Below, one piece after another: positions 8,379 to 58,306 of a DNA stretch of 64,000 nucleotides. This stretch comes from Dipteris shenzhenensis (Eukaryota): the NCBI GenBank assembly GCA_047967505.1, contig CM106538.1; one strand, written 5' to 3'. Below the pieces are notes generated by a model. The model saw only the letters and a program-made list of their open reading frames with translations. It was not told the origin of the DNA and ran no database searches. The translations under genes were made by a program, and so were the position numbers. Numbering within the stretch: the first letter of the stretch is position 1; the number at the start of each line of letters is the position of its first letter.

Positions 8379-9299
8379 CGCCCTCTATTTCTTCTTTGTT
8401 TTTGACTATTTACCTCTAGATATGATTTTTACAAACTACAACAGGTGAATGTTCTCTCTCTCTCTCTCCTCTTCTTCTTTTTTGAGTTTTTCCTTTGCAT
8501 GTGACTTTTATATATGACTGAACTGTAGCTCTATTTTTAAATAGAAGCAAACATGTCTCCAAAAAAAAATGTGAGGTCGGGAGGAAAGATCAACGAATCC
8601 AAGAAAGAGCCTCAGATCCTATCTCCAACAAAGAGAATTATAACAAAGGAAAAGGGGAAGGGCAAGCCACCTCAAACCCTATCAATTACAATTGGGGTGA
8701 AGCATGGGTGGAAGTTAGTCCTTAAAGCTAGGCCAAAAGTCTAGCAGGACATGGAGCAGTGGATGCAAGACACCTGGGGCACCCAGGACAAGGTAAGCCA
8801 ACGAGGCTATCACATTAGAATTCTCAAGTAAGATTTCTATGAAGACTTTATTTTTGTTTATAGAAGGATATACCAGACTTTATTTTTGTTTCTAGAAGGA
8901 TATAGCAAACTAGAACAATCATGAACAATGAGGTGGCACTGTAGTGGCTTGAGCTTATGTAGCATCATCTATTCATGCCACTGAGGTGGATTGACACAAA
9001 TTTTCCCACCATTGAGAAACTAATGTGAGGAGTGCTAATCAGGACAACACCTATATCAAATAGGAGAATGTTGCAGGAACCCTATTGGAAGGCCTTACAA
9101 AGGAACATCCTATGAAGAGGGACCTGAGTACTATGGTGTGAGACATCGACTAAGGATTAGCAAGTGGTCTTATCTGATTGGAAGAGAACGGTGGGGGAAG
9201 AGAAACAAATATTGATGTCAAAATTAGAAATGGTTGTTGCTACATGTGAGTCAAAAGCCACAAAAGACATCAACTCAATAAAACACACAGCCAACTAAG

Positions 9300-9661: not shown

Positions 9662-10192
9662 TTGGTTCATGGTAAGGAGCTCAACAAAGCAAACCAAGTT
9701 CGCGGTGTCCTGGTAAGAGGACCAGTGTTGCTTTCCTTTTTCGAGTTTGGGAGCAAATCTCTGCAGGTAGCACAGCCGAAAGTGCAAGAGTACACTGTCT
9801 CAGATTGAGACGCTCTTCGTGGTGTGGCGAGAGGGCAGTATATGCTGCGGGACAGGGCAAAGCCCTAGGTGACTTTATTTTTCTTATTCGAGGCCATTTC
9901 GGGGCCCGTTTTGAAGACAAAAGTTCTTCGCAGGCACTCAGAAAAAGGCCCTATTTTTGCTGTGTGACCATTGCTTTGCAGGTCGGTGAAAAGTTGCCGC
10001 AAAAATTGCATCGTATGCCTGTGCGCAGAGATACTAGGAGTTACAGAATCATCCTTACTACCTGTTGATGCAAAATCATCACTAGGAAGTGACTGTGTGG
10101 TCAAATAGCACTTTCGTCAGTTTTGCAAATTTGCCCGTGTGATGCAGAAGCTGTGTTCTTTGCAGTGACAGAATATTTTGCAGTGTTCTATA

Positions 10193-11517
10193 ATGGCGTC
10201 TGATTCTCTTTCACAGATTGTCACTGAAAAGCTTGACAAGAACAACTTCCAAGCATGGAAGTTTAGAATGACGAATTTCCTTGCGGGAAAAGGCTATTGG
10301 GAGTTCATTATAGGAAATGAAGAAGAACCAGTTCTTCCTAATGTTCGCAATCAACAGGAAATGCAAGCATTTAAAGGATGGCATGAGAGAGCCAGAAAAG
10401 CTATGTACTGGCTGTCTATCAGTATTTCGGATTCTATGATTGTGCATATTCAGGATGCAAGTATGCCAAAGGAGGCATGGGATACTTTGGCAAAAATGTA
10501 CAGCACAAATATGCAAGCCAGGAAAATGCAGCTCAAGCAGGAGTTGCACAATGTGCAGAGGGAAAATATGAGCATGAATGACTACCACATGAAGGTGAAG
10601 AAAATTGCAGATGCACTTGCTTCCATTGGGTCGCCAGTGGAAGATGATGATCTAGTTTCTGTGACCTTGAATGGTCTAAGAAAGGATTATGCACAGTTTC
10701 GGACATCCATTGCCGTCCGTGAAAAATTTCCTGATTTTGAGGAGTTCTTTGCTCTTCTAATTTCTGAAGAGTAGAGAAATGGTGGTGCATCTTCTTCAGG
10801 AGGAACTTCAAAAGAAACTATCTTCTACTCAAATGCTGGAAGAGGTAGAGGTAGAGGTAGAGGAGGCCGATCTGGAGGCCATGGTAGAAATCAAAATATG
10901 CAGCAAACTCAAGAAAAACAGTCCTTTGGAGGAGGACGTGGTAACTCTAGAGGCAGGGGGAGCCAAAGAGATCGTGGTGGATGGCAGAGAGGCCAAAATG
11001 CAAACAACAAAGTTGAATGCTACTATTATGGTAAAATGGGTCATATGGCTAAAGACTGCTACAAAAAGCACAACGACATTATGAATGGAAAATTGCAGCA
11101 CGGCAATTATGCATCTTCTAGTAGACAGGGTGATGATAGAAATGAGCATCTATTTATGGTGTAGCACATGACCAATTCTGTGACAAGTGTAGAAGAGCGA
11201 AATGATGTGTGGTATGTTGACTCAGGTGCGTCAAACCACATGACAGGTCATGCAGAATGGATGCAGGATGCAAGGAAAATGAAAAAACCAGGATTTGTGG
11301 AGACTGGTGACGATACTACACATCCTATTGTGCAGATTGGTAAAATTCCTTTGTTTATGCAAGATGGGAAAAAGAAATACCTGTCTAATGTATTTCATGT
11401 CCCAAATATCACCAAGAACCTGGTTTCTATTGGTCAAATGGTTGAGCAGGCCGACTTGTAGGTCAGATTTAATCCTCATGGATGCTTTGCTGAGGATATG
11501 AAAAATAAGGGTTGCTA
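10193..11517 (+). pseudogene. Copia gag-pol 5' part (Gag, CCHC knuckle, protease), three in-frame TAG stops, truncated at ~11517
   Basis: One frame: EKLDKNNFQAWKFRM (Copia Gag N-terminus), Gag_2-like WDTLAKMY..RKMQLKQEL, CYYYGKMGHMAKDC, protease WYVDSGASNHMT, HVPNITKNLVSIGQ; stops at 10772, 11162, 11459. Confidence 0.92.
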
Positions 11518-20829: not shown

Positions 20830-21640
20830 CATATCAATCGGACACATAAAGAGATATGTCACTTACAACCTTTACTTGAGCTTTAGCTAAATGATGAGAT
20901 ACAAGTTCCATTTTGGCTAAAATTCCATTTTTTAATGTGACTTTCTCGAGACGATTCACTATATTCTTTTCATGCAAGGAGATGAAATTGTTCTAGGAAG
21001 TTTGAAAGCACACACATTGTATAATTATCCTTATGAGTAAATGTTGACCTATTGATATCAAAATACTCTAAGGCAAGATTGAGAGCTAAAATAGCAACAA
21101 AATAGAAGCATGGAAGAGGAAGATGCATTAAATGAGGATGAAATAATGCATGACATGATAAGCACTTACTTTGATGATCCTCCACCCCAAAATGAAAGAG
21201 ATGAAGATGTCAAAGTGGTTAGGGAGGATAACATATAAATGTAGGTCGATATCATCAAAAGAGATCAAGAAATCATCCGTTTTGGAAATGAGACTTCTTG
21301 CCCTTGAAGCCATATGTTTGATTGAAAAGGCATTTCCAACAAATATCATGGACATCCAATTGCATCTACTCGTGCAATTGTAACATGGAAATGGAATATG
21401 AAGGCATGTTACATAGTTGATTGGATGTTTTTCTTGGAACATTTTATGAAGGTATTAAAATGGTATGTAAGACAAAAAGCTATAAAAGAGGGAAGCATGG
21501 CAAAAGATTGGTTGGTACAAAAAGCTATACTAGAGGGAAGCATGGCAAAAGTTTGGTTGGTATAACGGCCAATGTTTTATATATGTAGTTTTTTGAATTT
21601 GGGATGATAGAAATGAGCCAAAAGTTGTAAGAGAGATATA
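20830..21640 (+). pseudogene. Old CACTA/EnSpm transposase (TnpD-like) relic
   Basis: EAICLIEKAFPTNIMDIQLHLLVQL and MFFLEHFMKVLKWYVRQKAIKEGSMAKDWLVQ align with 54318-54545 of the inner CACTA transposase. Confidence 0.8.
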
Positions 21641-40960: not shown

Positions 40961-41243
40961 CTCCAAGCCCTTCTGCATGAACCACAATTTGGCCGATAGC
41001 TACCAGCTCACAAAGTTCCTACCAGTGAACTTGGCGATGGATTTCTTTGTCTTCTTCATTGACTCCATGCTTTCAATCTAGCATGCACAACCCGATTCGA
41101 GCAACAATTGAGAGCACACATTAGCTAGAACTTCTAAAGGATCTTTGGAACGATGATGCACTTTACTCCTTGGCCTCTTTGTCTTCCACACCAGCACACG
41201 ACCATTGATATCAAGACTGCCTAGCCTGAATCTTTGCTCATGA
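40961..41243 (-). pseudogene. Copia leader and gag N-terminus (ATG ~41068)
   Basis: MESMKKTKKSIAKFTGRNFVSW*LSAKLWFMQKGLE, a Copia Gag N-terminal motif. Confidence 0.75.
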
Positions 41244-41710
41244 CACAACAACACAAAGCAAATATAGACGTGCTTGGTAGATGCGCAAAATAGCGGGCGC
41301 GTCTATAGGCGTTGCTCTAGTAGAGAAATTACGGGCGCGTCTATAGTCGCGGCTAAACGCTCGTCTATTTGCACGTAAATCACCGCGTTTATTTGCGCGT
41401 TAGATCTGAGAAAATACGGGCCCGTCTAACATCCCGTTTATTAGCGCGTCTATTTGCGCGTGTATTTGCGTGTCTATTTGCACGTTTATTTGCGCGTTTA
41501 CACTGAGACTCAGACGCACATTTAGACGCGTAAATAGACGCGCTCCAAAGAATACAGAAAGTGAGATTTTGGTGTACATCATTGCTTTCCAAACATTGCC
41601 CATGATTACCAAAGCACATAATTTTTTGCAAGCCCACATATACAAGAATTAAGGGAAATGAGGAGAATGAGACAATATGTAAAATAGTTTTGCCAATATC
41701 AATTGTGGGG

Positions 41711-44178
41711 CTACGGTTCAATCTCATCCTCAATGAGATCAACCCTTGCCAAACTATCTACTTCAAAATCCAAACAAGTGTTTAGATCTACAAATACATT
41801 CAACCCACTACTACTTGTGCCACTCATGTGCTCATCGAAATCAACATCTCCAATGGTAGGCTCGTCCTCACGGGTAATGCCGGCCTCAATATCTATATCT
41901 CCTATCTCATGATCATCCTCCTCTCTTGTATCACGGTCATCATCACGTCCATGGCCATGATCATCCTCCATATGCTCCATATTAGTAAATGTACTATACA
42001 TCACTTTGGAACGTGGCATAATAGGTATGACATGCCACCACCTATTATTATCCACCATTGGTTGATAGACAACCTAATTCAAACACAAATACAATCATGT
42101 TACTTTTCTTGCATCAAATATTTAAAAGCGAGTATTTTTATGTGTGTGCACACAGTACCTGTTCACATTGTTGCGGTAGTACTAGTGTGTCCTTCCTACT
42201 TTGCTAAAACTTTGTGGAGTCAATAGTTACAAAGCCACTTGCATGGCGTTTGATTGTTGCATTAGGGCCTCTTTGCACCATGTCCTTAAACCACTTTACA
42301 TCCAAAACATACACAAAGAAGCGTCGAAAGTCAAGCATAATGATATCTTGGATTATGCCACAATAATCATGCATGGCTCCATTGGCTCCCTCAAAGCTAG
42401 CAATGACGCCGCAATCTTGTGTGTTTCTCTTATCATCAATCCGTTGTGTTCGAAAATGCTTGCCCTCACACCATATAGCATTGAACATAGTGCACTACAC
42501 CAAGAAAAAATCAATTAAATAAGCAATCTAGATTATAAAAAGCTCCTAACTTATGCATAACATTCTATATACCGACCTTGCTCATGCATCCCCTAGCATA
42601 CTCCCATTCTTCGATTGTGATATGCATCCCCTCGTCTTTCTCTGCTTTCTCCATTTCATCAAGTAGCCAATCCACATGAATATCCTTTGGAAGTGCTCTT
42701 AGACGCTGAGGGTATGGCACACGAGATCCGTGGTGTGTACGAAAAGAGGGCCATAGCCTGGGAAGTCATGCATCGTCCACATCAAGACTGCTTTGCAGTT
42801 GAAGTCTCATGAGAGGGAGGCCTACTCACATCATGCACCTCGATACCTCTCCAAAGTATCTCTAGCTCATCAATCAAAGGCTCCAAATAAACATCAGGGT
42901 TTTTGACTTTATGTTTCCATGGAATTAGAAGGGACAGCATGACATGTCCTTTCTTAATAGCCATAGAGGGTGGAAGATTGTAATTCACCAATACCACTGG
43001 CCATACACTATAAGACGTGCTTTTGACACCAAATGGGTTCACACCGTCCATACCCAATCCAAGTCTCAAGCTCCTAGGTTCTTCCTTGAAGCTTGGCCAT
43101 GTGTCTTCAATATGCTTCCATGCAGGAGAGTCCGCGGGAGTTCTCCACTTGCCATCGGTTGATCGATGGGAGGAATGCCATGACATGAGCTCTGCAATAG
43201 ATTTGCACTTGAACATATGTTGGATGCGAGGGATTATGGGAAAATGTCGCAATACCTTACGAGGCACGTCCAAGGTTTTGAGATCTGCTCTATATCTTGC
43301 CTCTCCACAAGTAGGACACTCTCTTGCATCCTTATGTAGTCCACGAAACAAAACGCAATCGTTGACACATGCATGGATGTGCTTGTAATCTAATCCTCCA
43401 AGAGAGGTCACATGTTGCCTTGCCATATCTCTTGAGGTCGGTAATTTATTCTCCCTTGGAAGCATTTTACACAATAGCCTGCACGTGAAGACCATAAATG
43501 AGGAAAAGCATTCGAGTAATTGACCCACTAGCATAATTCACCATGTTTGCAAAATCGACTTTAAAGCTTACTTGAGTAATGCATTCAAACTTGCATTGCT
43601 CCATCCATAGATGGTTTGCAAGTTTAGTAACTCAAGGGAGGCACGTAGAACATGAGAGAATGTGCACCCCTCAAATAGTGGAGTCGATGTTGCGGTAAAA
43701 AGATCATCCCTTGATGGACATATAAATCCCGCACCATATCATCAAACACCTCCTCCTCCATGGCTTCATGAGGTAATGGTGGAGGGCTACTATCACCATC
43801 ACTCCATGCATCCGTAACAGTCCCTCCTAAAGATCCCACCTCATATCGCCGACGCTTCGCCTCCTCACAACGGGCATAGGGTAACATGTGCGGGTGTGGC
43901 ACTGCATCCTGTATCAAATTAAAACGGGATCATAACTCAAACATATGAACACTCATAGGTATCTCAATCAACCTTAACTTACAAACCCTTACCCTGTTTA
44001 CGGTCACATCCCATTCTCCATACTTTGAGATATGATTGAGCGTAATCCTGCGTGCACGATACATGTTTCCTTGACATCGATCACACAGACATTTGATTTT
44101 TTGCTCCAACCACATTTCGCGATGGTGGATACGGAGGGATTCATCCTCACTGGAGCTGCTTGTTGAAGATGGAGACAT
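41711..44178 (-). pseudogene. Outer element transposase (TnpD-like), spliced, with a frameshift (~42805) and a large internal deletion (~42750)
   Basis: CLCDRC N-terminus; IHACVNDCVLFR..CPTCGEARY; DSPAWKHI..LRLGLGMDGVNPF..WPVVLVNYNLPP; WTMHDFPGYG joined directly to the late region; QDCGV..DVKWF; acidic tail. Confidence 0.92.
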
Positions 44179-44234
44179 CCTACAAACAAACAACCCACCA
44201 AATTTGCTCTTCTTCAAATGCTTAACTTAAACTC

Positions 44235-45155
44235 TGTGTTGCGTCTATCATCGCGTCTATCGTCGTGTCTAATGTCGCATCTAACAGCGCGTCTAAACGC
44301 GCGTCTACGCTGTGTATTTAAACACGGCTGTAGATGTGCTAATAGACGCGACTATAGACGCATCTACTCTGTGTATTCAGATGCGACTATAGACGCGCTA
44401 ATAGATGTGACTATAGACGCAACTTTTAAACCTGCTTTTCGGCGCGCCGCTCGCTTTGCTTTTCTTTTCACTACTTAAACTTCGCGAGCGGCTTTCTTCC
44501 TTCTTTATTACTAGTTCTATAGATTCGAAGCTTAAGAGAGAGCCTCCCATACACAGTTCCAAGCTTTCACTCAAGAGAAAGGGACCGTCCCTACACTTGC
44601 TTCCAAGCCTAAAGAAGAGGAGGAGTACGAACAAGGAGAAGAAACAAGTTTGGAAAAGAAAGATCCTTCCATACCTTTTTCCAAGTAAGTCCTTTTGAAG
44701 TTGTTCTTGCTTGCTCTTTCCAGTTTTGTACTTTCTCGCATCCACGAAACGCAGCATCTAGGTATGAGCGACACGTTCTTTTGTCGGGCGAAACGTCCTT
44801 TTCGACTTTTTAGTATTCTCGCCTGTCGAAGCGCGTGTATAGAGGCATCTGAGGATGCGTCTAAACGCGCATCTACAGGCGCATCTATCTACGCGTCTGG
44901 CTTGTTACAGACACACACAGACGCGTATGTAGACGCTCACACAGACGCCCTGTTAAATGGAGTTTTAAATGCACTATTAGACGCGCTGTTAGACGGATGT
45001 TTAGACGGACTGTTAGACACACTGTTAGACGCGCTTGTAAACGCACTGTTAGACGGATTGCTGGACGGACTATTAGACACGGTTTTACTTGAATTGTTAA
45101 ACGCTCTGTTAGACGCGTCTATAGATGCGTAGATCAGACGGGTTTATAGACGCGC
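44235..45155. promoter_or_regulatory. Divergent intergenic region of the outer element with two clusters of its TAGACGC(G) motif (~44240-44420, ~44830-45155)
   Basis: Same motif as the terminal arrays at 41260-41545 and 58000-58255; regulatory role is inferred. Confidence 0.6.
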
Positions 45156-45691
45156 TCTGACAGAGCCTCTTTTTTTTTCCCCTTTCTTCTCAACTCCCAA
45201 AGTAATAGATTTGTTTCCTTTTTTCCAGTTCAACATGTGGGGAGGAAGTGCTTCTAGCTCACCTGATCTGCGGGAATCGATATGGAAGGATTTATATAAC
45301 ATTTTAGGGCACCCTCCTAGTCCTGCGGAGTTATACGGGTACATGACGGGTACCCTTAACACTCCCCAGGAGTCGGCACTACAGACTCCGAGCCACCCCA
45401 CACCGCCTGAGATCACACTACAAGGCATAGGCCATTTTCCGACGGAAATACCGACGCTTTTTACATTAAAAATTTTTTTTTTCACGGGCGCAAAGGTCGC
45501 TATAAAAGTCGTTAAAATCGTCGGAAAAGGAGCGTCGCTATATAGCGACGCTGTTAATCGTCGCTATATAGCGACGATGTAAACGTCGCTATATAGCGAC
45601 GATGTAAACGTCGCTATATAGCGACTCTGTTAATCGTCGCTATATAGCGACACTGGTAAACGTCGCTATATAGCGACGATTAACAGAAGGT

Positions 45692-45762
45692 AAAAAAAAT
45701 GGTTAGTGGGGCTAAACAGGGCCAAAAGGAAGCCCTGTTTAGCCCCACTAACCATTTTTTTT
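45692..45762. repeat. Perfect 31-bp-stem hairpin with a 9-nt loop
   Basis: A8-TGGTTAGTGGGGCTAAACAGGGC caaaaggaa GCCCTGTTTAGCCCCACTAACCA-T8. Confidence 0.95.
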
Positions 45763-45954
45763 TTTTTGTAATTACAAAAGAAAGTTTTTTATAACAAAAT
45801 TTCCCTTGCTTGCAGGGTGATACAAAATTGTTCTTGTGAACGATGAGGAAGAAATGCATATACATATACAACTGTGTTTGAAACAAAATTACCCTGTGAA
45901 AGGGCGATACAAAATGGCTCTAACGAGCGGATATGAAAAATGCTACTACCACTA

Positions 45955-47530
45955 CTAATCCGAATCCAAATCCGAATCGTCTTGTTGGGCTGTTCCCTGG
46001 TCCTCGGCACCTGCATCTTCTCCCTCGTCCCCGACACCTGCGTCTTCTCCTTCGTCATCGGCACCTGCGTCCGATCCTTGCCCCTGTTGATCGCTCGTCT
46101 CGGATGATGGGACGCTTGAGCTTTGACCCTGAGAGTGAACCATATAAATCGAAAATTAGATTGGAACTTAAATTAAAAAGTGAGATTACAAGCAGGAGTA
46201 AACTTATACCGTGCGAGCAGCCACCTCAGCCCAATCGACTGTCGCTCCCATTGCCTCTTGCTCAATGAACCACGGCTTGGTTCCTATCCGAAATGCGCGC
46301 CGCGTCTCTGCATCCGTAGGAAGACGACCCATCGCAGCTTGCTGTGGATCCAATTTACGAGAGTTAGAGTTAGCTAAAGTGCATGTAATATGTAAGTAAA
46401 ACAAATAGAACAATACATTAAATGGAAAGAAGTAAACTTACCACGGTTGCCTCGAACGCATACCGTCCACCTGCACCAAAGTGCGAAGTACCTACAACAT
46501 CCAGCCGTCTCTTCGCAGCCCTCCTCTGACCCTCGAACATTTCAGGATGGTCCCTATTCTGCTTCTTCAAGAACTTCCAATCAGCTTTGTCTGCCCAGCT
46601 GGGTTTAGACAACCCCTTTGTAATGGAAGTACGCATGGTTGATCTGCGATGCTTTAGGACCAAACCCATGCGCTCGAGCATATAACTGTTATTAAACTCC
46701 ACATTTGGCGGATTAGGAAATCTGAGTTTTAACTCATCGATCACCGCCTGCTTCTTTTGGCCATCTTGATACCGCCAATCGATATTTATGCCGCTCTTGA
46801 AGTGATGACTCATCAACCGCCTCATGGCGGCCATCACTGCTTTGCCCTTTTTGTCTTCTATTATCTCTCCGGCAGATGTGATTTGATAGGAGAGATCCCC
46901 TGATGAGTAAGGGGGACTGACGGTAGCAGAGTCTAAAGGAGTGGAAGCTGCGCGACCGCTTCCAGATCGAGGAGTAGCTGTGGGAGTAGGAGAGGGAAAG
47001 GGACCTGACTGATACTGTGTCTCCGGACCAAGTGGAGACCTAAAGGAGCGTGAGTGTGCTGACTCGTCTACATCTCCTGAGTCAGCACAACATGAGCCGC
47101 CCATCCTACTCTTCCTTCCCTTGCGGGAGGCATGCGCAGGTGATGATCCCGCGGTCGAAGGGGCGTGAGGGGATGGCTGGGTTGTACGTCCACCCGTCAG
47201 TGTAGGGGAAGGAATTGCGGAGGTCCTCTGAGAGAGCAGAGAGAAGAATCTCGCTGCCTCCTCATCGCTCATCTGCGCTACAAACTCGTCAGGAGTCCCA
47301 ACAAAGCCATGCGCGGCTAGCAAAGGAGTCCCCTGAGGGGTAGTCGCAGTGCTACGTGGAAGAGGGGTCGGACCAGGGGTAGTCACAGTGCTAGGACCGA
47401 GAGGAGTCGGACCAGGGGTAGTCCTCGGGGTAGTCGCCTGAGAGGAATCAAAGTCCTCTGGAGCATATAGATCGTGAGCTCTCCTCCTGCGAGGCTGTCC
47501 GTACTCGTCGGATGAGCGACGTGATCCCAT
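45955..47530 (-). CDS. Inner element ORF2 (TnpA/Transposase_24-like), apparently intact; exons 47530-46442, 46341-46210, 46128-45955
   Basis: Open frame across phase-0 GT-AG introns; P/S/T-rich N-terminus; YQITSAGEII, RFPNPPN, HFGAGG, GRLPT, acidic tail; homologous to the outer ORF2 with the same intron positions. Confidence 0.8.
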
Positions 47531-47789
47531 GTCTAACATAGACACAAACACGAAAACAGAAAACAAATAAACAAACATGAGCATTCTCATAGGCATAGGC
47601 ATAGGCAAGAAGAAAGAAGAGGGAAAGGAAAGAGGGAAAGAAGAGGGAAAGATAAGAGGGAAAGAAGATGTAAAGGAAAGAAAAGAATGAGAACGAGGAA
47701 ATAGAGAATGAGAGAAAGGGAAAGAGATGAGGGAAAATAGAGAATGAGAGAAGGGGGAAATGAGAGAAGGGGGAAATAGAGTGGGAAAT

Positions 47790-50680
47790 AGAGAATGAGC
47801 TTATGCAGAAATAGAGAATGAGCTTATGCTTCTCTCATTCTCTATTTGCGCATAAGCTCACGCATGTGCATGAGCTTATGCGGAAACTTAAGCATAAGCT
47901 CATGCACATGCATGAGCATAAGCATGAGAAGGATGAGTTTCCGCATGCTTATGCTCATGCGGAAAAAGAGAAGGAGCTTATGCAGAAAAAGAGAAGGAGA
48001 GAAGCATCTCTCATTCTCTATTTCCACATAAGCTCCTTCTCTTTTTCCGCATGAGCTTATGCTTATGCTCATGGGTGAGCATGAGCTTATGCTCATGTTT
48101 CCGCATATGCGAAAATAGAGGAGGAGAGAAGCATAAGCTTCTCTCATTCTCTATTTCCGCATATGCTCACGCAAAAGAGAAAGAGAAAGAGCTTATGCGG
48201 AAAGAGAGAAAGAGCTTATGCGGAAAAAGAGAATGAGATCCGCATATGCTTCTCTCATTCTCTATTTCCGCATAAGCTCCTGCGGAAACTTCCGCATAAG
48301 CTCATGCTCATGAATAAGCATAAGCTCATGCTTATGCTCATGCGGAAATAGAGAAGGAGCTTATGCGGAATGAGAGAAGGAGCTTATGCGGAATAAGAGA
48401 AGGAGCTCATGCGGAAACTTGCGGAAACTTGCATGCGGAATAAGAGAAGGAGCTTATGCGGAAAAAGAGAATGAGAGAAGCATATGCGGATCTCATTCTC
48501 TATTTCCGCATAAGCTCTTGCGGAAACTTACGCATAAGCTCATGGACATGAATGAGCATAAGCATGAGCTTATGCTTATGCTCATGCATAAGCATAAGCA
48601 TAAGCTCATGCTCATGCTCATGCGGAAAAAGAGAAGGAGCTTATGCGGAAAGAGAGAAGGAGCACTTGCGGAAACTTGCGGATAAGCTCTTGCGGAAACT
48701 TGCGGATAGCCTATGCTTATGCTTATGCGGAAACTTGCGGAAACTCATGCTTATGCTCATGCGGAAATAGAGAAGAAGCATAAGCATGAGCATAAGCATA
48801 AGCATAAGCATAAGCATGAATGAGCATAAGCATGAGCTTATGCTTATGCTTATGCATAAGCATAAGCATAAGCTCATGCATAAGCTCATGCTTATGCTCA
48901 TGCGGAAACTTGCGAAGGAGCTTATGCGGAATGAGAGAAGGAGCTTATGCGCAAAAAGAGAAGGAGCTTATGCGGAAAAAGAGAAGGAGCACTTGCGGAA
49001 ACTTGCGCATAAGCTCTTGCGGAAACTTGCGCATAAGCTCATGACAAGCTCCTTCTCTCATTCCGCATAAGCTCCTTCTCTATTTCCGCATGAGCATAAG
49101 CATAAGCTCATGCTTATGCTCATGCGGAAATAGAGAAGGAGCTTATGCGGAATGAGAGAAGGAGCTTATGCGGAAAAAGAGAAGGAGCTCATGCGAAAAC
49201 TTGCGGAAACTTGCATGCGGAATAAGAGAAGGAGCTTATGCGGAAAAAGAGAATGAGAGAAGCATATGCTTCTCTCATTCTCTATTTCCGCATAAGCTCT
49301 TGCGGAAACTTACGCATAAGCTCATGGACATGAATGAGCATAAGCATGAGCTTATGCTTATGCTCATGCATAAGCATAAGCATAAGCTCATGCTCATGCT
49401 CATGCGGAAAAAGAGAAGGAGCTTATGCGGAAAGAGAGAAGGAGCACTTGCGGAAACTTGCGCATAAGCTCTTGCGGAAACTTGCGCATAAGCTCATGAC
49501 AAGCTCCTTCTCTCATTCCGCATAAGCTCCTTCTCTATTTCCGCATGAGCTCCTGCATGAGCTTATGCTTATGCTTATGCATAAGCATAAGCATGAGCTT
49601 ATGCTTATGCTTATGCATAAGCATAAGCATAAGCTCATGCTTATGCTCATGCGGAAATAGAGAAGGAGCTTATGCGGAATGAGAGAAGGAGCTTATGCGG
49701 AAAAAGAGAATGAGAGAAGCATATGCTTCTCTCATTCTCTATTTCCGCATAAGCTCTTGCGGAAACTTACGCATAAGCTCATGCGGAAGAATGAGCATAA
49801 GCATGAGCTTATGCTTATGCTTATGCATAAGCATAAGCATAAGCTCATGCTTATGCTCATGCGGAAAAAGAGAGGGAGCTTATGCGGAAAAAGAGAAGGA
49901 GCACTTGCGGAAACTTGCGGATAAGCTCTTGCGGAAACTTACGCATAAGCTCATGCTCATGAATGAGCATAAGCATGAGCTTATGCTTATGCTTATGCAT
50001 AAGCATAAGCTCATGCTTATGCTCATGCGGAAATAGAGAAGGAGCTTATGCGGAATGAGAGAAGGAGCTTATGCGGAAAAAGAGAATGAGAGAAGCATAT
50101 GCTTCTCTCATTCTCTATTTCCGCATAAGCTCTTGCGGAAACTTACGCATAAGCTCATGCTCATGAATGAGCATAAGCATGAGCTTATGCTTATGCTTAT
50201 GCATAAGCATAAGCATAAGCTCATGCTTATGCTCATGCGGAAATAGAGGAGGAGCTTATGCGGAAAAAGAGAAGGAGCACTTGCGGAAACTTGCGGATAA
50301 GCTCTTGCGGAAACTTACGCATAAGCTCTTGCGGATGAATGAGCATAAGCATGAGCTTATGCTTATGCTTATGCATAAGCATAAGCATAAGCTCATGCTT
50401 ATGCTCATGCGGAAATAGAGAAGGAGCTTATGCGGAATGAGAGAAGGAGCTTATGCGGAAAAAGAGAATAAGAGAAGCGTATGCTTCTCTCATTCTCTAT
50501 TTCCGCATAAGCTCTTGCGGAAACTTACGCATAAGCTCATGCTCATGAATGAGCATAAGCATGAGCTTATGCTTATGCTTATGCATAAGCATAAGCATGA
50601 GCTTATGCTTATGCTCATGCGGAAATAGAGGAGGAGCTTATGCGGAATGAGAGAAGCATAAGCATAAGAGAATAAGAGGG
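47790..50680. repeat. 2.9-kb palindromic minisatellite array (GCATAA/TTATGC, ATGAGC/GCTCAT, GCGGAAA units) flanked by purine-rich tracts
   Basis: A ~68-bp near-perfect palindrome GAGCTTATGCGGAAAAAGAGAATGAGAGAAGCAT|ATGCTTCTCTCATTCTCTATTTCCGCATAAGCTC recurs at ~48450, 49232, 49689, 50065, 50447. Confidence 0.95.
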
Positions 50681-51541
50681 ATGCGGAAATAGAGAATAAG
50701 GGGGAAAGGAAAGAGAGAAGGGAAAAGAGAGATGGGGAAAGAGAGAATAAGAGAAGAGGGAAAAAAGAGAAGGGGGAAAATGAGAAAAAGAGAAGGGGGA
50801 AGAGAGGGTTCCTACGCCCATCACTGCAGCTAGCGCTTAAGGTGCTAGCTGCAGGCAAATGCAAATAACAAAAAGCTTAAATGGAAAGAAGAGGAAGCAC
50901 TTACCTGTAAAAGTATGTCCCGCTCGGTGTAGTGGACTGGGCCCACAAAAGAGAGACTATGTCCCGCTCGGTGTAGTGGACTGGCCCTACAAAAGAGAGA
51001 AAACAACCCATTTTTTCAAATAAGATGTTAGTGGAAAGAGGAGATCACAAAAGCAACTTCTTGAAAGGAGACAAGGAAAGAGAAGATTGAGGAGACAAGG
51101 AAAGGAGGAGATTGAGGAGAAGAGAAGGAAGAGAAGGAAGAGAAATACAGAAAGAAGAGGTGAGTTTCTTTCTTTCTTTCTTGAAATTTCGTTTTTTGTT
51201 TGAATCCTTTCTAATCAAGCATGAAAACTAGTTTAAAACTTTAGCAATACAAGTAGAAACACTCACAAAACCAAAGCTAACAAACAAACAACCTACATTG
51301 TTGAAAAAAACTCACCTTTTGAAGAACTTTCTTTCTGGAAACCAAAGAGGGAAAAAGGAGAGAGAGGGTGCACAAGAGGTAGGAGGAGGGTGAGGAGTGG
51401 GAAATAGGGTAGGAGGTTGCTTGGAATAGATGGGAGGTCAGTGAAAATAGGTGGGAGGAGATTTTGGAGAGCTTAGTTTAGAGATTAGGAAAGCTTTGAG
51501 CAAAACGCCGCGGGTTTCGCCGTTTCGGGTTTTAACCCACA

Positions 51542-51651
51542 GCGTCGCTATATAGCGACGTTTTTAATTGAAAACGTCGCTATATAGCGACGCTTTCAAT
51601 TAAAAACGTCGCTATATAGCGACGGAACAGAGCGTCGCTATATAGCGACGC
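51542..51651. promoter_or_regulatory. Four internal copies of the inner element's subterminal palindrome upstream of the transposase ATG
   Basis: CGTCGCTATATAGCGACG occurs four times, identical to the terminal arrays. Confidence 0.7.
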
Positions 51652-51884
51652 TTACTGTTTGTTTTTTAATGAGGCCTCTTGTGACTCAAACATGCTATGC
51701 CTATAATTGTCAATATCTCCTCTTACTACATAGCCTTACTATATAGGATTTTTTTTTTCAATCCTTACTATATAGCGATGTCATTCTTTTTATATAGCCT
51801 CAAGAGAAGCTCAAATTAAACATGCTATGCTCATAATTGTGTACATCTCCTCTTCATGCTTATGTTTTGGTTTTATAAGTGTAG

Positions 51885-54800
51885 ATGGAAGGGACGAGTG
51901 GAAGCTCATCCGATGATGCGCCAACGCCCGGGAGCACGAAGTGGCTTACGGAGAGGTTATATTGTCATTGCACTCATTGCAAGCGAGAAGTACGACATCA
52001 ACGTCGTATTATCATGCGCCACTTGCGGATGTATGGGGAGGAGCCGGAACCAATACCCCCCGTTGGTGTTGCACATGTTGATGGATCATCGGTAAGTCAA
52101 AGCTATTTAAGTTCGCAATCTTATTGTATACCCGGAATTAGAAGATCTTCTATTTACACGAATGAGCTTATGACAGGATGACGAGGGTAACGAGGGTACA
52201 CATATACCTTCTCACTTTCAACAAGACTATAGTCTCCCAGATGACGACGAGGGTATGGTCGACATGATGGATTCCATTTTTAGGGGCACTACATCCCACG
52301 TACACGTGATGTCAGAGTCTGAGGTGAAAATGCGAGAGTTGCAATCAACACAATTGTACGAGGGTGCCAGGATGTCTAAACTACGTGCTTGTCTCTCAAT
52401 CTTGAATCTACAAGTACAGTATGGGTGGTCGGATACAAGTGTCTCGGCCTTAATGAGGTTAGCCCTTGCATTAATTTGATTGACTCATTATTTGGATATT
52501 GTTTGTTTTGAGAATCATCATTTGGATAGTGTCTTTGTCATAGGTTGCTCCAAAAGATGTTGCCTGCACCAAATACCATGCCCGCATCAAGAGATGAAGC
52601 GAAAAAGATGCTAACAATGGTGGGTATGGATTATGATACCATCCATGCTTACCGTAATGATTGTATTCTCTTTCGTCGTGAGCATGGAGATTTGGCTAGT
52701 TGTCCAAAGTGTGGGGAACAACGATATAGAGATGACTTGCAGGGTGAGAGGATACCGGTAAAGGTCTTAAGACACTTTCCCATCATTGCAAGAATACAAC
52801 ACATGTTTCGATGCAAATCCATAGCGGAGTTGATGACATGGCATGCATCTCATCGGTCCACTGATCACACATTGAGGATTCCCGCAGATTGTGCGGCTTG
52901 GAAGCACATAGATAATCAGTGGCCGGACTTTGCGAGAGAGCCACGCAACTTACATCTTGGGCTAGCCATGGACGGCGTGAATCCTTTCGGGTTACGCTCG
53001 ACATCTTGGTCGACATGGCCCATAGTCGTGGTGAATTACAATATCCCACCATGGCTAACAATAAAAAAGGACACCTCATGCTTGCACTACTTGTGCCAGG
53101 AAAGTACAAGGCAAGAAACATGGACGTGTACATGGCACCTTTGATAGAGGAGTTACAGATATTATGGAGAGGAGTGCAGGTCTTTGATATTTCCAGAGCT
53201 CCTAGGCATACCAATGATATTTCCGTCAGGGGTATCTTGATGTGGACCATGCATGACTACCCAGGATATGGAGAGTGCGCAGGTACGTGGTTATGTCTTT
53301 ACATGTACAATGAGGGATTATGCTTTTTTTACTCTCTTTTGCACGCATGTCTTGTACTAACATATTCATGCACGCATGCAGGGCTTGCTACAAGTGGGTA
53401 CCATGCTTGTCCTGTTTGTGGACCCGCTCTGAAATCGCTTGCACGCTACTCCAAACACATGAGGAAAAATGTTTATGAAGGTCATGCTCGATACCTTCCA
53501 CTCGACCATCTCGCACGTGGAGGTCAGCTTGATCCACCACCATCATATTTAAAAGCAAGTGATTGGATTCAAGCTTGGAGGGAGAATGGAGAGGAACCTC
53601 CTCCTGGTATGAAGAGGCTTTCGATCTTTCACGAGCTTCCTTATTGGGGTCAGTTACAAATCAATCATCTCTTGGATCCCATGCATATCTTTAAGAATGT
53701 GGGGGCTACCATTTGGGCACACTTGGTTGGTTCCAAGGACTCGAGAGGAGTGCGAGAAGACTTGCGTGCTATGAATAGGATGTCTCGTTTGTGGCCCCAA
53801 GTGCATGCTTCAGGAAAAGTTGTCCTCCCGAAAGCAACGTGGATCCTCTCTACGAGGGAGGAGGCAGCGATCAAGGCAGACATTGCCTCTTTTCAAACAC
53901 CGACAGGGTACATGCGTTGCTTGAAAGGAGCATTTTCAAAGGACAATAAGCTTAGTGGCCTCAAGTCCCATGATTGGCACAAGGTCTTACAGGTATTCTA
54001 AGTAGAATTAGTGTACCGATAATAGTGATGCATTAGCGTAATTATTATTATGTTATATTGTTGACATGATTTCATTGTTGCTTTGATAGTTCATCCTTCC
54101 AATTACAATAAAAGGGTGCTTACAAGAAGATGTTAGAAATGCTATATTCAAGATCTGTGGTATTGTGAGGTATGCTTACTATCAATTCGCATTATCTATT
54201 TTCTTCATGGACATGTGAAATAGGTGGATATCTCAAATATCTTACATATGCATGGACATGTGAAATAGGTGGATATCTCAAAAAGAGATCTCTATATCGA
54301 GCATCGAGAAGGCTAGGGTGGAATCCATCGAAGCCGTATGCTTGCTTGAGAAGCACTTTCCCTCAAGCATTATGACAACTCAAGTCCACTTGCTTGTGCA
54401 CATAGTTGATGAGGTGGCTATAGCAGGTACCGTTCATAATCGATGGATGTTTTTTCTCGAGCGGTTTATGAAAACTTTAAAGGGGTTTGTAAGACAAAGA
54501 GCAAGACCAGAAGCAAGCATGGCAGAGGGATGGCTTGTGCAAGAGTCATTAGTATATATCACAGAGTTTCTTGCATCCACGGATCCTGATATGCCGCAAG
54601 CTTGGCACAACAAGGATGATGATCGCATCATTGGCGAGGTCCCCCAAGGAAAAGGGATTGAAAGAAAGATGAGCGAAGAGCAAATGGAGAAATTCAATAA
54701 GTTTTGTATCCTCAATAGCCCTGAGATGCAAAAGTGGATTGAGAGATATGAAGTGGCCAAAGCAGAAAGAATAAATGCAAGGACGAGATTCAGAGTAATG

Positions 54801-55959
54801 TACAGGCGATCACAACCATATCCACGAGATCTGGCTCTTCTCCCTACTCACATGTCACTTGATTGGCTACAACTAGCTATACGTAAAGCCGAACGTGATG
54901 GAGAGACAATAAACGAGCGCGAGCGGGAGTTATCATCTGGATGTATGGTGCATGTAAGTTTCTTATCTCTTGATGTAATTAAGTAATTATTTGTGGCAAT
55001 ATATGCTATAAAATAGGTGCATCTTCATTGTTTTAATGATGCTCTTTTACAGTACAAAAAGTACAGTGCATTATGGTCATATGGACGACATTTTCGCATA
55101 GAACGCATCGATTCAAAGAGAGTCACGTATGATTGTGGAGTCATGGCTAACTTCACACAAGATAGCCGAGCAAGTGCTTCGGATACCAATCTTCTCTCCT
55201 CACAGTTGGATTATTGTGGAACCATACGTGGAACCATACGCGACATCTATGAAATTGATTTCAGACGATTTACTATTTTCATTCTTGATGTAAAATAGTT
55301 TAGAACTACTTACAACGGTCCCCATGCAACTGTGAGAAAAGATGGTAGCGGTCTCTTTGCAATAGACTCCACCAAACATTGGACCGATGAAAGTGATACT
55401 TTTGTTCTTCCCGAGCACTGTGAGCAGGTGCATACTAATGATTTAATTAGTCGAAGCTTTCGTTTTTTAAGTCCATTGATATATATATAATTGACGACAT
55501 TTGGCACGTGATTTTTCATCTTCAATATAGGTGGTTTTTCATCCGGATCGTTCTGATCCAAGATGGTGGTACGTGATCCAAGTTGCACCACGAAGTAAGC
55601 AGATTTTTGAAGATCGAGATGTGGATATGGAGATGCCACTACCAAATCCGGATCCAATTGATGAATCTAGCGAAGAAGATGTAGATCACCATATGAGGCA
55701 AGAGGAAGATGCGCATAATGACATCGCACGGGAGGAGGATGGAGATCACGATATTGACGAGGAAGACAACAATCGTCAAGATCAATCACCACACTTAAGC
55801 TTAATTGAAGAAGATGATCAAATACTTTTAGGTGAACGTACGATGCTAGAGTACGATGATGATATAGGAGATCAACTCGGTATAGAGTTGGAGATAGACT
55901 TGCTTGGCGCCTTAGACTTGGCTCAAGATGAAACAGTTGATGTAAATGCTCTTATTTAA
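51885..55959 (+). pseudogene. Inner element transposase (TnpD-like), full length, 8 exons, one frameshift and one nonsense codon
   Basis: Exons ~51885-52091, 52177-52457, 52544-53282, 53382-53992, 54090-54169, 54269-54954, 55053-55428, 55531-55959; motifs CHCTHC, LGLAMDGVNPF, MHDYPGYG, LDPMHIFKNV, GLKSHDWH, WMFFLERFM; 1-bp loss in the A-run ~53065; DVK-TAG-F at 55296. Confidence 0.93.
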
Positions 55960-58306
55960 TTTGATTTTTCTCATCTCCAACTTGGACATGAATATATGAG
56001 CTTCAAAGGCTTGATGTACATGCTCTCATTTTTTATTTCTCTATGAGCTCAAACATGTATGAAAATTTAAAAAATTTTGTCATTGGAAGAAAATAAATTT
56101 TAAGGCTAAAAAAAAAAAAAAAACCTCTCTGTAAAACGTCGCTATAATATAGTCTCAGTGTCGCTATATAGCGACCTTTCAAAGTCGCTATATAGCGACC
56201 ATTACTAACGTCGCTATATAGCGACGCTTATTAAAAGTCGCTATATAGCGACGATTTACGACACCCGATTTTTATACCGACGATTAACGCTAAGCGGGCG
56301 CTAATCGTCGGTACGTAAACGTCGCAATAGGATGCGTGTGTAGTAGTGTCATCCCAGCGGAGTCCGCATAGCCATCTTATGCCCCGTCTTATGCCCCTTC
56401 CCCTGTACCGTCTTATGCCCCTTCCCCCATGCCGTCTTATGTCCCTTCTGCCATCCCATCTTATGCCCCTTCCCCCATGCCGTCAGGAGGTCCTTCTGTC
56501 TCGGCGAGCCGTCGACGTACTCCCCAGCTGTCGAGACTCGGTTCTCCAGCTACGAGTGGTCAGCGTAGTCCCGTGCAGTCCCCAGCTAGGAGTGGCCAGC
56601 GTAGGAGCTCGACACGACAGGGTAGCAGGCGTAGTAGTAGGGAGAGCGGTGGCGGATGCATGGCACAGTGCTTTGGGCCATGTGGCGGTGAGGAGGAGGA
56701 TGATTCGGATGATTTAGACGTGCCTCTGGGTGATGGTATGATTTATTATGACATCACTCAGACAGGAGGCATCTTGATGGATGCGCAGGGGAAGGACATC
56801 ATGGCCTTCATGCGCTCTGTAATTGCTAACAATTACAGAGATTGCTTTATCCACTATAAAGACCACCCAAAGAGGTTGGCTGATGAGACCCTCGCTACTG
56901 TTCGCTCTAGGTATCCTAACCCCCCCAATCGCCAGTTCACAGATAAATGGGGGAAGTCAAAGATTGTTACGATACTTAGCAATAGAAGATCTTCCCTTAA
57001 GAGGCAGGCACTAGCAGAGCTTGCCAGACTTGAGGCAGGTCAACCTCCAAGGGGCCCGCCCCACACCGCTCACAAGCGTGAGTGGAAGAAGGCAATGAAG
57101 TCAGCGAGGGAGGAGCCCAGTCTGCAGCACGTGGAGGCACGGAGGATCCAGATGGAGGAATATGGGAGCGTGCATTTTGGAGCAGGGGGTGTTGAATCAT
57201 GGGAGGCCCAATTTGTAAGTATCGATCTCAAATTATATTGCTTATGTAGTTTATTAGGAGGTTGGTTGTTTCTTTATACTAATCCCTCCACAAAGTGTAT
57301 CGCGGTCATGCAGCTTGAGATCGTGGGCAGATACCCTACTCCAGTGGAGACAGCCTACCACCACCACCATCGCAGAGGAGATACATGGAGGCACTTCTAT
57401 GATGACGAGTTGATTACTGAGGAGCAGTATACCCGAGCTACTGGACAGGCCCCCCAGGTATTTGAAAGTAATTAAATAATGCCAAAATTATAAGTAAAGA
57501 TTTGATTTTTCATACATTGATATATGTTGTCCCTTGTTTACAGGCCCATGCACAAGACGATGAGGAAGAGGAGGAAGGAGGCACAGAAGGGAGCGCAGAA
57601 GGGAGCATGGAAGGGAGCGAGGACCTAGAGAACATAGATTAGTCGTATAAGTAATGCTAGCTACTCTTTTTTGTACTTAAAGCCACTGGATTGGCTTCGT
57701 GCCTCTTGTATATAGATTCCTCTTATTTTTTGTACTTGAAGCCACATGACATGGCTTAGCTTCCTTATTTTTTGTACTTGAAGCCACATGACGTGGCTTA
57801 GCTTCGTGCTATATATATATACAAGCACTTTTTTGAGCTTTCAATTTTATTGCGATTTGGAGTTGTAATATTTTATTTGGAATTGTAATTAAAATGCGGT
57901 TGGCTGTAAGAATTGAATTACAGAATGTGGATATGGGATTCTTGTAACTATATAGCATACACAACATACACACTATTCTGTAAAATTTATTTTAAAAAAA
58001 AGGCGCGTCTATCAGTGCGTTTAAAAATGCGTTTATATTCGCGTCTGTCTGTTCGTTTTGGTCTATACACGCGTCTATAAAAGCGTTCATAAGCGCGTCT
58101 ATCTATGCATCTTTGTGCACATCTATACACGCGTAAGTATGATATATAGACGCGCAATTAGATGCGGGTCTCCAGACGCACAAATAGACGCGCAAATAGA
58201 CGCGCCCGTAAGTTTTTATTTTAGTTCATGAAATGCATCTGTGCGTGCGTCTATGGGTGCTTTGTCTTGTTGTGTGAATTCTTCTTCGCTGGATCCTCAC
58301 GACCAC

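Follow-up and report, generated by a model that had tools for sequence, protein, structure and literature searches.

CACTA elements are the textbook example of self-regulating transposons, in which the protein TnpA binds repeats that overlap a single terminal promoter. A transposase and an accessory protein produced from two separately transcribed genes, in an orientation that depends on the family, occur in MuDR (mudrA/mudrB) and PIF/Harbinger, which belong to other superfamilies and whose transposases and accessory proteins are unrelated to those of CACTA elements. The available text of PMC2613891 describes maize En/Spm, Tam1 and soybean Tgmt* as coding on one strand with alternative splicing, and describes En/Spm TnpA as binding the subterminal repeats and also acting on the element's own promoter. 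In Arabidopsis, EN/SPM3 and 7 are single alternatively spliced genes and EN/SPM2, 5, 6 and 9 consist of two genes "head-to-tail in tandem", and a rapid turnover of coding strategies in the superfamily has already been noted (PMC13547354, in the part available). A rice CACTA element has two genes in an orientation parallel to the neighbouring Sub1A-1 gene, as far as the accessible portion of PMC13438062 describes it. This study was concerned with a stretch of 64,000 nucleotides from Dipteris shenzhenensis (GenBank assembly GCA_047967505.1, contig CM106538.1), referred to as the window. The window carries two nested CACTA/En-Spm cut-and-paste transposons, each with a transposase gene and a divergently oriented second gene, open reading frame 2 (ORF2), which we consider likely to encode a TnpA-like accessory protein.

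The ends of the outer element (41244-58274) were read directly from its terminal inverted repeats (TIRs) and from a target site duplication (TSD) of 3 bp, TGA, present at 41241-41243 and again at 58275-58277. The outer TIR begins CACAACAA, and its CACAAC start is the canonical CACTA/CACTG pentamer with one base changed. The left TIR (CACAACAACACAAAGC, 41244-41259, plus strand) and the right TIR (CACAACAAGACAAAGC as reverse complement, 58259-58274, minus strand) agree at 15 of 16 positions, and zero-mismatch matches to the outer TIR within the window number only two. The inner element (45416-56348) interrupts coding exon 1 of the outer ORF2, where it was inserted. It has CACTAC at both ends (left TIR CACTACAAGGCATAG, 45416-45430, plus strand; right TIR CACTACTACACACGC as reverse complement, 56334-56348, minus strand) and is flanked by the TSD TCA (45413-45415 on the left, 56349-56351 on the right).

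In both elements the transposase and ORF2 start head-to-head on opposite strands, and the four start positions given in the original prediction are correct. The transposase genes were located by ORFs, Pfam and tblastn. In the outer element the transposase runs leftward from its ATG at 44178 to 41711 on the minus strand, and ORF2 runs rightward from 45235 on the plus strand. The first part of ORF2 coding exon 1 (45235-45415) is separated by the inner element from the remainder (56352-57642), in which exon 1 continues to 57214, followed by exon 2 (57314-57457) and exon 3 (57544-57642). With the inner element excised, the outer ORF2 comprises 428 codons with a single in-frame TAG at 56369-71. In the inner element ORF2 runs leftward on the minus strand from its ATG at 47530 to 45955 (exons 47530-46442, 46341-46210 and 46128-45955) and is intact, coding for 464 amino acids, while the transposase occupies 51885 (ATG)-55959 on the plus strand. 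Both transposases are Tnp2-type DDE enzymes and match Transposase_21 (PF02992) over the curated Pfam cut-off (outer, E 9.9e-39; inner, E 4.4e-27 and 2.2e-22), and the inner one also contains DUF4218. Thus, the assignment of the elements to the CACTA type was borne out by Transposase_21 in both, the 3-bp TSDs, the CACTA-like TIRs and the subterminal repeats in direct and inverted orientation.

A new observation is that the subterminal motif of each element also clusters between its two gene starts. In the outer element a GCGCGTCTAT-type motif forms a left subterminal cluster of eight copies in both orientations (41264-41543) and a right subterminal cluster of seven (58003-58254). A further 11 copies (44251-45155) fill the 1,056 bp between the start codons. 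Allowing at most one mismatch, GCGCGTCTAT has 26 matches in the window against 0.79 expected, every one of them within the outer element. In the inner element the palindrome GTCGCTATATAGCGAC occurs in six copies at a spacing of about 25 bp near the left end (45536-45675) and in four copies near the right end (56162-56250). Four perfect copies of the same palindrome are found at 51546-51647, 240-340 bp 5' of the transposase ATG. The 14 window matches of CGCTATATAGCG (0.05 expected) are all inside the inner element. The two elements had been claimed to differ in termini and subterminal motifs, and they do: the TIRs start with CACAAC in one and CACTAC in the other, CGCTATATAGCG is confined to the inner element and GCGCGTCTAT to the outer. 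A 10-mer, CCTTTTGAAG, is common to both intergenic regions; it was judged a chance match, as about eight such matches are expected by arithmetic.

The elements therefore share with maize En/Spm (and with Tam1 and Tgmt*) a Tnp2-type transposase, a 3-bp TSD, CACTA-like TIRs, subterminal repeats in two orientations and a second protein. They differ from En/Spm, where one terminal promoter gives one pre-mRNA for tnpA and tnpD, in having two genes on opposite strands whose starts are in the middle of the element, in carrying the repeat motif internally as well as at the ends, and in an ORF2 without a detectable Pfam TnpA or Transposase_24 domain. They resemble Arabidopsis EN/SPM2, 5, 6 and 9, for which the part of PMC13547354 available reports TnpD-like and TnpA-like proteins from two separate, non-overlapping genes; however, those genes are head-to-tail and the window genes head-to-head, and the transposases are about 30% identical in the compared region.

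Transcript structure was addressed by comparing contigs from public sequencing runs, none of which is recorded as RNA, with the window. The transposase and ORF2 are separate, spliced transcription units on opposite strands. Each of the inner transposase introns (52091-52175, 52456-52541 and 55426-55528) corresponds to a GT..AG joint in the contigs, which in run X5 (organism B) read 52090>52176, 52455>52542 and 55425>55529 on the plus strand. The X5 joints at the ORF2 introns (46127>46209 and 46341>46442) read CT..AC and so correspond to GT..AG introns of a minus-strand gene. In run X6, from organism A (a label also on run X1, the best DNA holder of the stretch), one contig (record 22) has ORF2 intron 2 spliced out and intron 1 retained. 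An organisation of the En/Spm type, on one strand and with one transcript or tandem genes, was not found: the start codons diverge, and the splice dinucleotides are on opposite strands.

The inner ORF2 also has a candidate intron of 3.37 kb in its 5' untranslated region (5'-UTR), at 47533-50904 on the minus strand, with GT..AG borders. Support for it is thin, at one contig per run: an X6 contig breaks at 47534 and continues with ten letters of 50907-50916, and an X5 contig has a joint 47541>50958. Should this intron be genuine, the leading exon of ORF2 would be no more than about 1 kb away from the inner transposase ATG, and the effective intergenic distance in the inner element would be of similar length to the 1,056 bp in the outer one. 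A splice-acceptor-like AG stands 0-6 bases before the ATG in all four genes (44179-44181, 45226-45229, 47533-47534 and 51882-51884). This suggests 5'-UTR introns in all of them, with contig support for the inner ORF2 only. The candidate donor of the ORF2 5'-UTR intron is at the edge of a 44-bp unit that occurs twice (95% identity) at 50914-51000; the unit contains GGTGTAGTG, which resembles a CACTA 3' end, but a search for a matching internal TIR gave none. A model with crossed, overlapping first exons was dropped, its basis being splice-site look-alikes only.

The candidate intron spans a complex tandem and inverted, satellite-like array (47612-50801) made of 23-, 24- and 36-bp units with a higher-order repeat of 376 bp (2.8 copies at 95%). 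The array varies in length between copies, with joints in X1 and X2 contigs that skip 937-3146 bp. It apparently lies within the 5'-UTR intron of the inner ORF2, and copies of unequal length are seen in three runs.

A possible explanation for the divergent genes is that the head-to-head arrangement is an accident of two rearranged, defective copies whose intact relatives are co-directional, as in En/Spm. Both window copies are broken and one related family is co-directional, as described below, and each of these facts would fit such an accident. However, the same layout is present in two elements with different TIRs, different motifs and ORF2s of only 30% identity, and each element has one TIR pair; a search of the window for internal TIR copies or remnants, the sign of a fusion of two elements, found none within either. 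In addition, contigs of other copies connect the 5' flank of ORF2 (47.5-47.8 kb) with the segment at 50.6-51.0 kb, without a change of orientation; the listed joints of this kind number five in X1, one in X2 and one in X5, and X6 also provides a case. Lastly, the ORF2 profile was applied to six-frame pieces of the 75 loci returned by a metagenome scan with the transposase alignment, and all 19 of its domain hits (independent E-value below 1) were on the strand opposite the transposase. An accident of rearrangement is thus very improbable.

The metagenome loci also contain a different geometry. Loci L011, L013, L015, L019 and L024 are one CACTA family: nucleotide identity to L013 is 69-79% over long stretches for L011, L015 and L024, and about 69% over three shorter stretches for L019. 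In the three long loci, L011, L013 and L015, profile positions 9-98 are encoded by ORF2 exons located downstream of the transposase and positions 97-166 by exons located upstream, so that the transposase lies antisense inside an ORF2 intron. This architecture is kept across copies of 69-79% identity and resembles the transposase-in-intron arrangement of En/Spm, but inverted. L013 has CACTACAAC termini at 68 and 8935, and a palindrome, GCGTCGCT(A/T)AGCGAC, near both ends only (181-233 and 8732-8906). The three loci therefore resemble the inner element in having an ORF2 of the inner clade opposite the transposase, CACTACAAC termini and common GTCGC half-sites, and they differ from the window elements in an ORF2 split around the transposase and in the lack of a visible internal motif cluster. 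The palindromes of L013 (GTCGC-TAA/TTA-GCGAC) and of the inner element (GTCGC-TATATA-GCGAC) have common half-sites, and the corresponding ORF2s group within one clade. The motif of the outer element, whose ORF2 is in the other clade, is non-palindromic and unrelated to either palindrome. When metagenomes were scanned separately with ORF2 patterns, 480 stretches came up, of which none was confirmed.

A third arrangement is found in four gene predictions (P0017, P0018, P0031 and P0036), in which transposase segments are N-terminal to ORF2 on one strand. These fusion predictions point to a co-directional layout in their family, as deduced from the predicted proteins. In this family (P0017 and P0031) ORF2 follows the transposase and shares its strand, as the second protein does in En/Spm.

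A maximum-likelihood tree of 47 ORF2 domains (rows shorter than 120 amino acids were excluded) has two deep clades with 100/100 support. The outer ORF2 falls in one; the other holds the ORF2s of the inner element, of the co-directional family and of the L013 family. On this tree the head-to-head layout appears on both sides of the deepest ORF2 split, yet the layout has changed more than once, and head-to-head is one of at least three layouts that pair the ORF2 family with a CACTA transposase. The original prediction of a distinct lineage with separately transcribed, divergent genes thus stands in part. The opposite-strand splicing, the presence of the layout in both ORF2 clades and the ORF2s opposite the transposase in L011, L013 and L015 agree with it; however, orientation is not fixed across ORF2-bearing CACTA elements, and the geometry of those three loci, with ORF2 exons straddling the transposase, is another one. 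A full-text literature search returned no description of a head-to-head CACTA element, which does not by itself rule out an earlier description.

The nearest named transposases are those of the liverworts Calypogeia (36% identity) and Riccia (35%) and of the fern Adiantum. The En/Spm-like transposases of Arabidopsis, Brassica and Capsicum are 25-31% identical, and the closest matches overall (41-52%) are unnamed. Judged from these matches, from the Streptophyta clusters nearest in the Atlas and from the label "algae metagenome" on some runs that contain the DNA, the host is likely to be a non-seed plant or a streptophyte alga. Since the nearest named transposases are from liverworts and a fern and those of angiosperms are at about 30%, the contrast with typical angiosperm CACTA elements spans a large phylogenetic distance.

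The two ORF2 proteins are homologous (30% identity over 177 amino acids, E 3e-23). As had been predicted, both carry the motifs YxITxxGxI, R[FY]PNPPN, HFGAGG and GRxPT and an acidic tail, and they share their intron positions: both coding introns are of phase 0 and coincide in the alignment, the first ten residues past HFGAGG and the second 44 or 48 residues further. A profile built from the two sequences matched 74 representative clusters (defined at 50% identity) at E<=1e-3, 32 of them at E<=1e-10, among 1.84 billion proteins, and the nearest clusters in the Atlas are from Streptophyta. The intron site was counted by eye in the 35 relatives whose sequence extends 12 residues or more beyond H-x-G-x-G-G. 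In 23 of these the motif is followed by [FY]-V-S, the read-through of a GTAAGT donor at the intron site of the window. Nine continue as spliced forms, G-R-x-x-x-x-x-E, and three read otherwise. Together, the read-through and spliced forms indicate that the intron position is family-wide. Relative P0003 has a sub-threshold HTH_70 match, relative P0026 carries retrotransposon domains in other parts of its sequence, and a word-indexed protein search with the inner ORF2 gave no match.

Such a gene might instead be a host gene or fragment captured by CACTA elements (transduplication) with no role in transposition. The capture of host sequence by CACTA elements is known (PMC2528002, in the portion available), and ORF2 is without a Pfam family or a solved relative. 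Several observations argue otherwise. First, ORF2 is intact and spliced, and its intron position is conserved. Secondly, four or more distinct CACTA families carry it (inner, outer, P0017 and L013), and these span both deep clades. Third, its basic domain and acidic tail fit a regulator. Lastly, in the co-directional family ORF2 is placed where TnpA is in En/Spm. Capture is thus extremely unlikely. The homologous copies, the intact frame, the family-wide intron, the fusions and the exons inside L011, L013 and L015 together indicate that ORF2 is a gene of the element and not cargo.

The question of whether this gene is a known one centres on Transposase_24 (PF03004, "Ptta/En/Spm"), the family against which the original prediction proposed to search ORF2. 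If ORF2 were a diverged member, the elements would be ordinary En/Spm relatives with that gene inverted, and its product would be a protein already known. By hmmscan, PF03004 was matched by none of 15 window pieces, none of 21 relatives (E<=0.01) and none of 30 alignment members (E<=10). When 71 ORF2-family sequences were compared by hhalign with ten Brassicaceae proteins that carry Transposase_24, a single collinear alignment was obtained, with 118 columns, Prob 36% and E 3.7e-4. This probability is under the usual acceptance levels, and the Transposase_24 side was of low diversity (Neff about 2). A single-template comparison (Prob 6%) aligned the same region and stops where PF03004 begins in P0085. 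At rank 10 in the Atlas search (score 0.90) is a cluster with PF03004 in 32% of its members. The order of motifs is also parallel by eye to that of Transposase_24: W..., KPxW..xxW, H.G.G and then G..P...H. However, a hidden Markov model of the Brassicaceae proteins had no match in any of the 75 metagenome loci, and TnpA-like domains are stated, in the available part of PMC13547354, to occur only in flowering plants. Membership in Transposase_24 is therefore credible but unlikely, and the divergent pairing of a CACTA transposase with a separate ORF2 family is still preferred.

The predicted structure of ORF2 was also considered. The AF2 model of the inner ORF2 domain is all-helical (pLDDT 87.7, pTM 0.75). 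The domain (residues about 206-363 in the inner ORF2 and about 183-348 in the outer) is about 165 amino acids long and basic (isoelectric point, pI, 9.5-10.1), followed by an acidic tail (pI 4.05) without K or R; the N-terminal half is disordered and about 50% Ser, Thr, Pro and Gly. Foldseek returned nothing from PDB at E<=1e-3, and a sequence-profile search of PDB gave a best E of 0.17. There is a weak resemblance of the model to helical DNA-binding folds. N-terminal to the conserved domain, the inner ORF2 (about residues 143-155) and the outer ORF2 (about 160-175) have a Gly-rich Cys-Cys motif with acidic residues after it. It is also seen in P0015, P0017, P0058 and P0072, within their low-complexity N-terminal halves; examples are GGSCCADSGDVDE, GGGCMAQCFGPCGGEEEDD, GGGGCCFGGGG and RGCGCCGDRDD.

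In the mechanism we propose, ORF2 would be a TnpA-like accessory protein with sequence-specific DNA binding. Its basic helical domain would bind the subterminal repeats of its own family, GTCGCTATATAGCGAC in the inner element and the GCGCGTCTAT-type motif in the outer, and this binding would bring the element ends together for the transposase. The promoters would be central in the element and not at its end. ORF2 bound to the central motif cluster may then exert feedback on the two promoters, in the way that TnpA acts on the terminal promoter of En/Spm.

Several points weigh against this reading. First, both window copies are defective. The outer transposase keeps only Transposase_21 profile positions 1-114 of 213 and lacks DUF4218: by tblastn with the inner exons it has lost about 1.5 kb, equivalent to inner 53273-54789, with the junction at 42750/42744, and the deleted stretch is the second half of Transposase_21 plus DUF4218. 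In the inner transposase the frame is shifted by 1 nt at 53068, where it reads ...IKK and then GH.... Thus, neither copy is autonomous alone, although frameshift-free copies exist in the inner family. At the frameshift site contigs of three runs (X1, X2 and X5) have one additional G, which indicates that other copies of the family stay in frame. Secondly, the contigs show spliced forms and not start sites or levels, and they come without strand or start information, so that strand was deduced from the splice dinucleotides alone. X5 is labelled "DNA?" and X6 "RNA? (a guess)", and the spliced contigs could in principle be processed copies. Third, no Pfam family was found for the ORF2 domain among the 21 relatives scanned or in the 15 window pieces, the profile-profile result hints at homology to PF03004 and is insufficient to establish it, and the fold matches of the ORF2 model are under the tool's noise level for helical proteins. 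Fourth, no internal motif cluster was seen among the most repeated exact 10-mers of the L013 family, and the central cluster is therefore not general to ORF2-bearing elements. Lastly, the binding of ORF2 to the subterminal repeats is a proposal that draws on indirect evidence: the basic helical domain of the model, its weak resemblance to DNA-binding folds, the motif clusters at the element ends and between the gene starts, and the half-sites common to the inner and L013 motifs.

Further traces of related elements and of other transposons were noted. One X5 contig omits 1185 bp of the inner transposase (53621-54807) and represents a deletion derivative of the inner family; the omitted segment overlaps the one lost from the outer transposase. 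Elsewhere in the window, two tblastn segments at 21243-21532 (plus strand), 52-62% identical to the DUF4218 part of the inner transposase, are the remains of another CACTA element, and the sequence around them has no match to ORF2. At 10169-10774 (plus strand) a copia-type gag ORF (Retrotran_gag_2, E 7e-25) belongs to a long terminal repeat (LTR) retrotransposon.

A broader and speculative proposal, which we hold to be rather unlikely, is that the ORF2 family is an ancient streptophyte CACTA accessory protein, a distant ancestor or sister of the angiosperm Transposase_24/TnpA-like proteins. The central bidirectional promoter with its own binding sites would then be ancestral, and the En/Spm and Arabidopsis layouts derived. 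If true, the ancestral element would have been a self-contained feedback switch. The window elements have the same parts as the self-regulating CACTA elements in another wiring, with two central divergent promoters proposed and additional copies of the end repeats between them. If ORF2 does bind the repeats, these elements would be a natural test of dosage coupling between transposase and accessory protein, and they would indicate that the logic of regulation can be retained even when the arrangement of the genes is entirely different. In addition, a widespread unnamed family of 74 clusters, with a confident fold and no clear solved match, is here proposed as a transposon accessory protein. 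Recognition of this family would help to annotate transposons in the genomes of bryophytes, ferns and algae, in which its members now stand as "hypothetical proteins".

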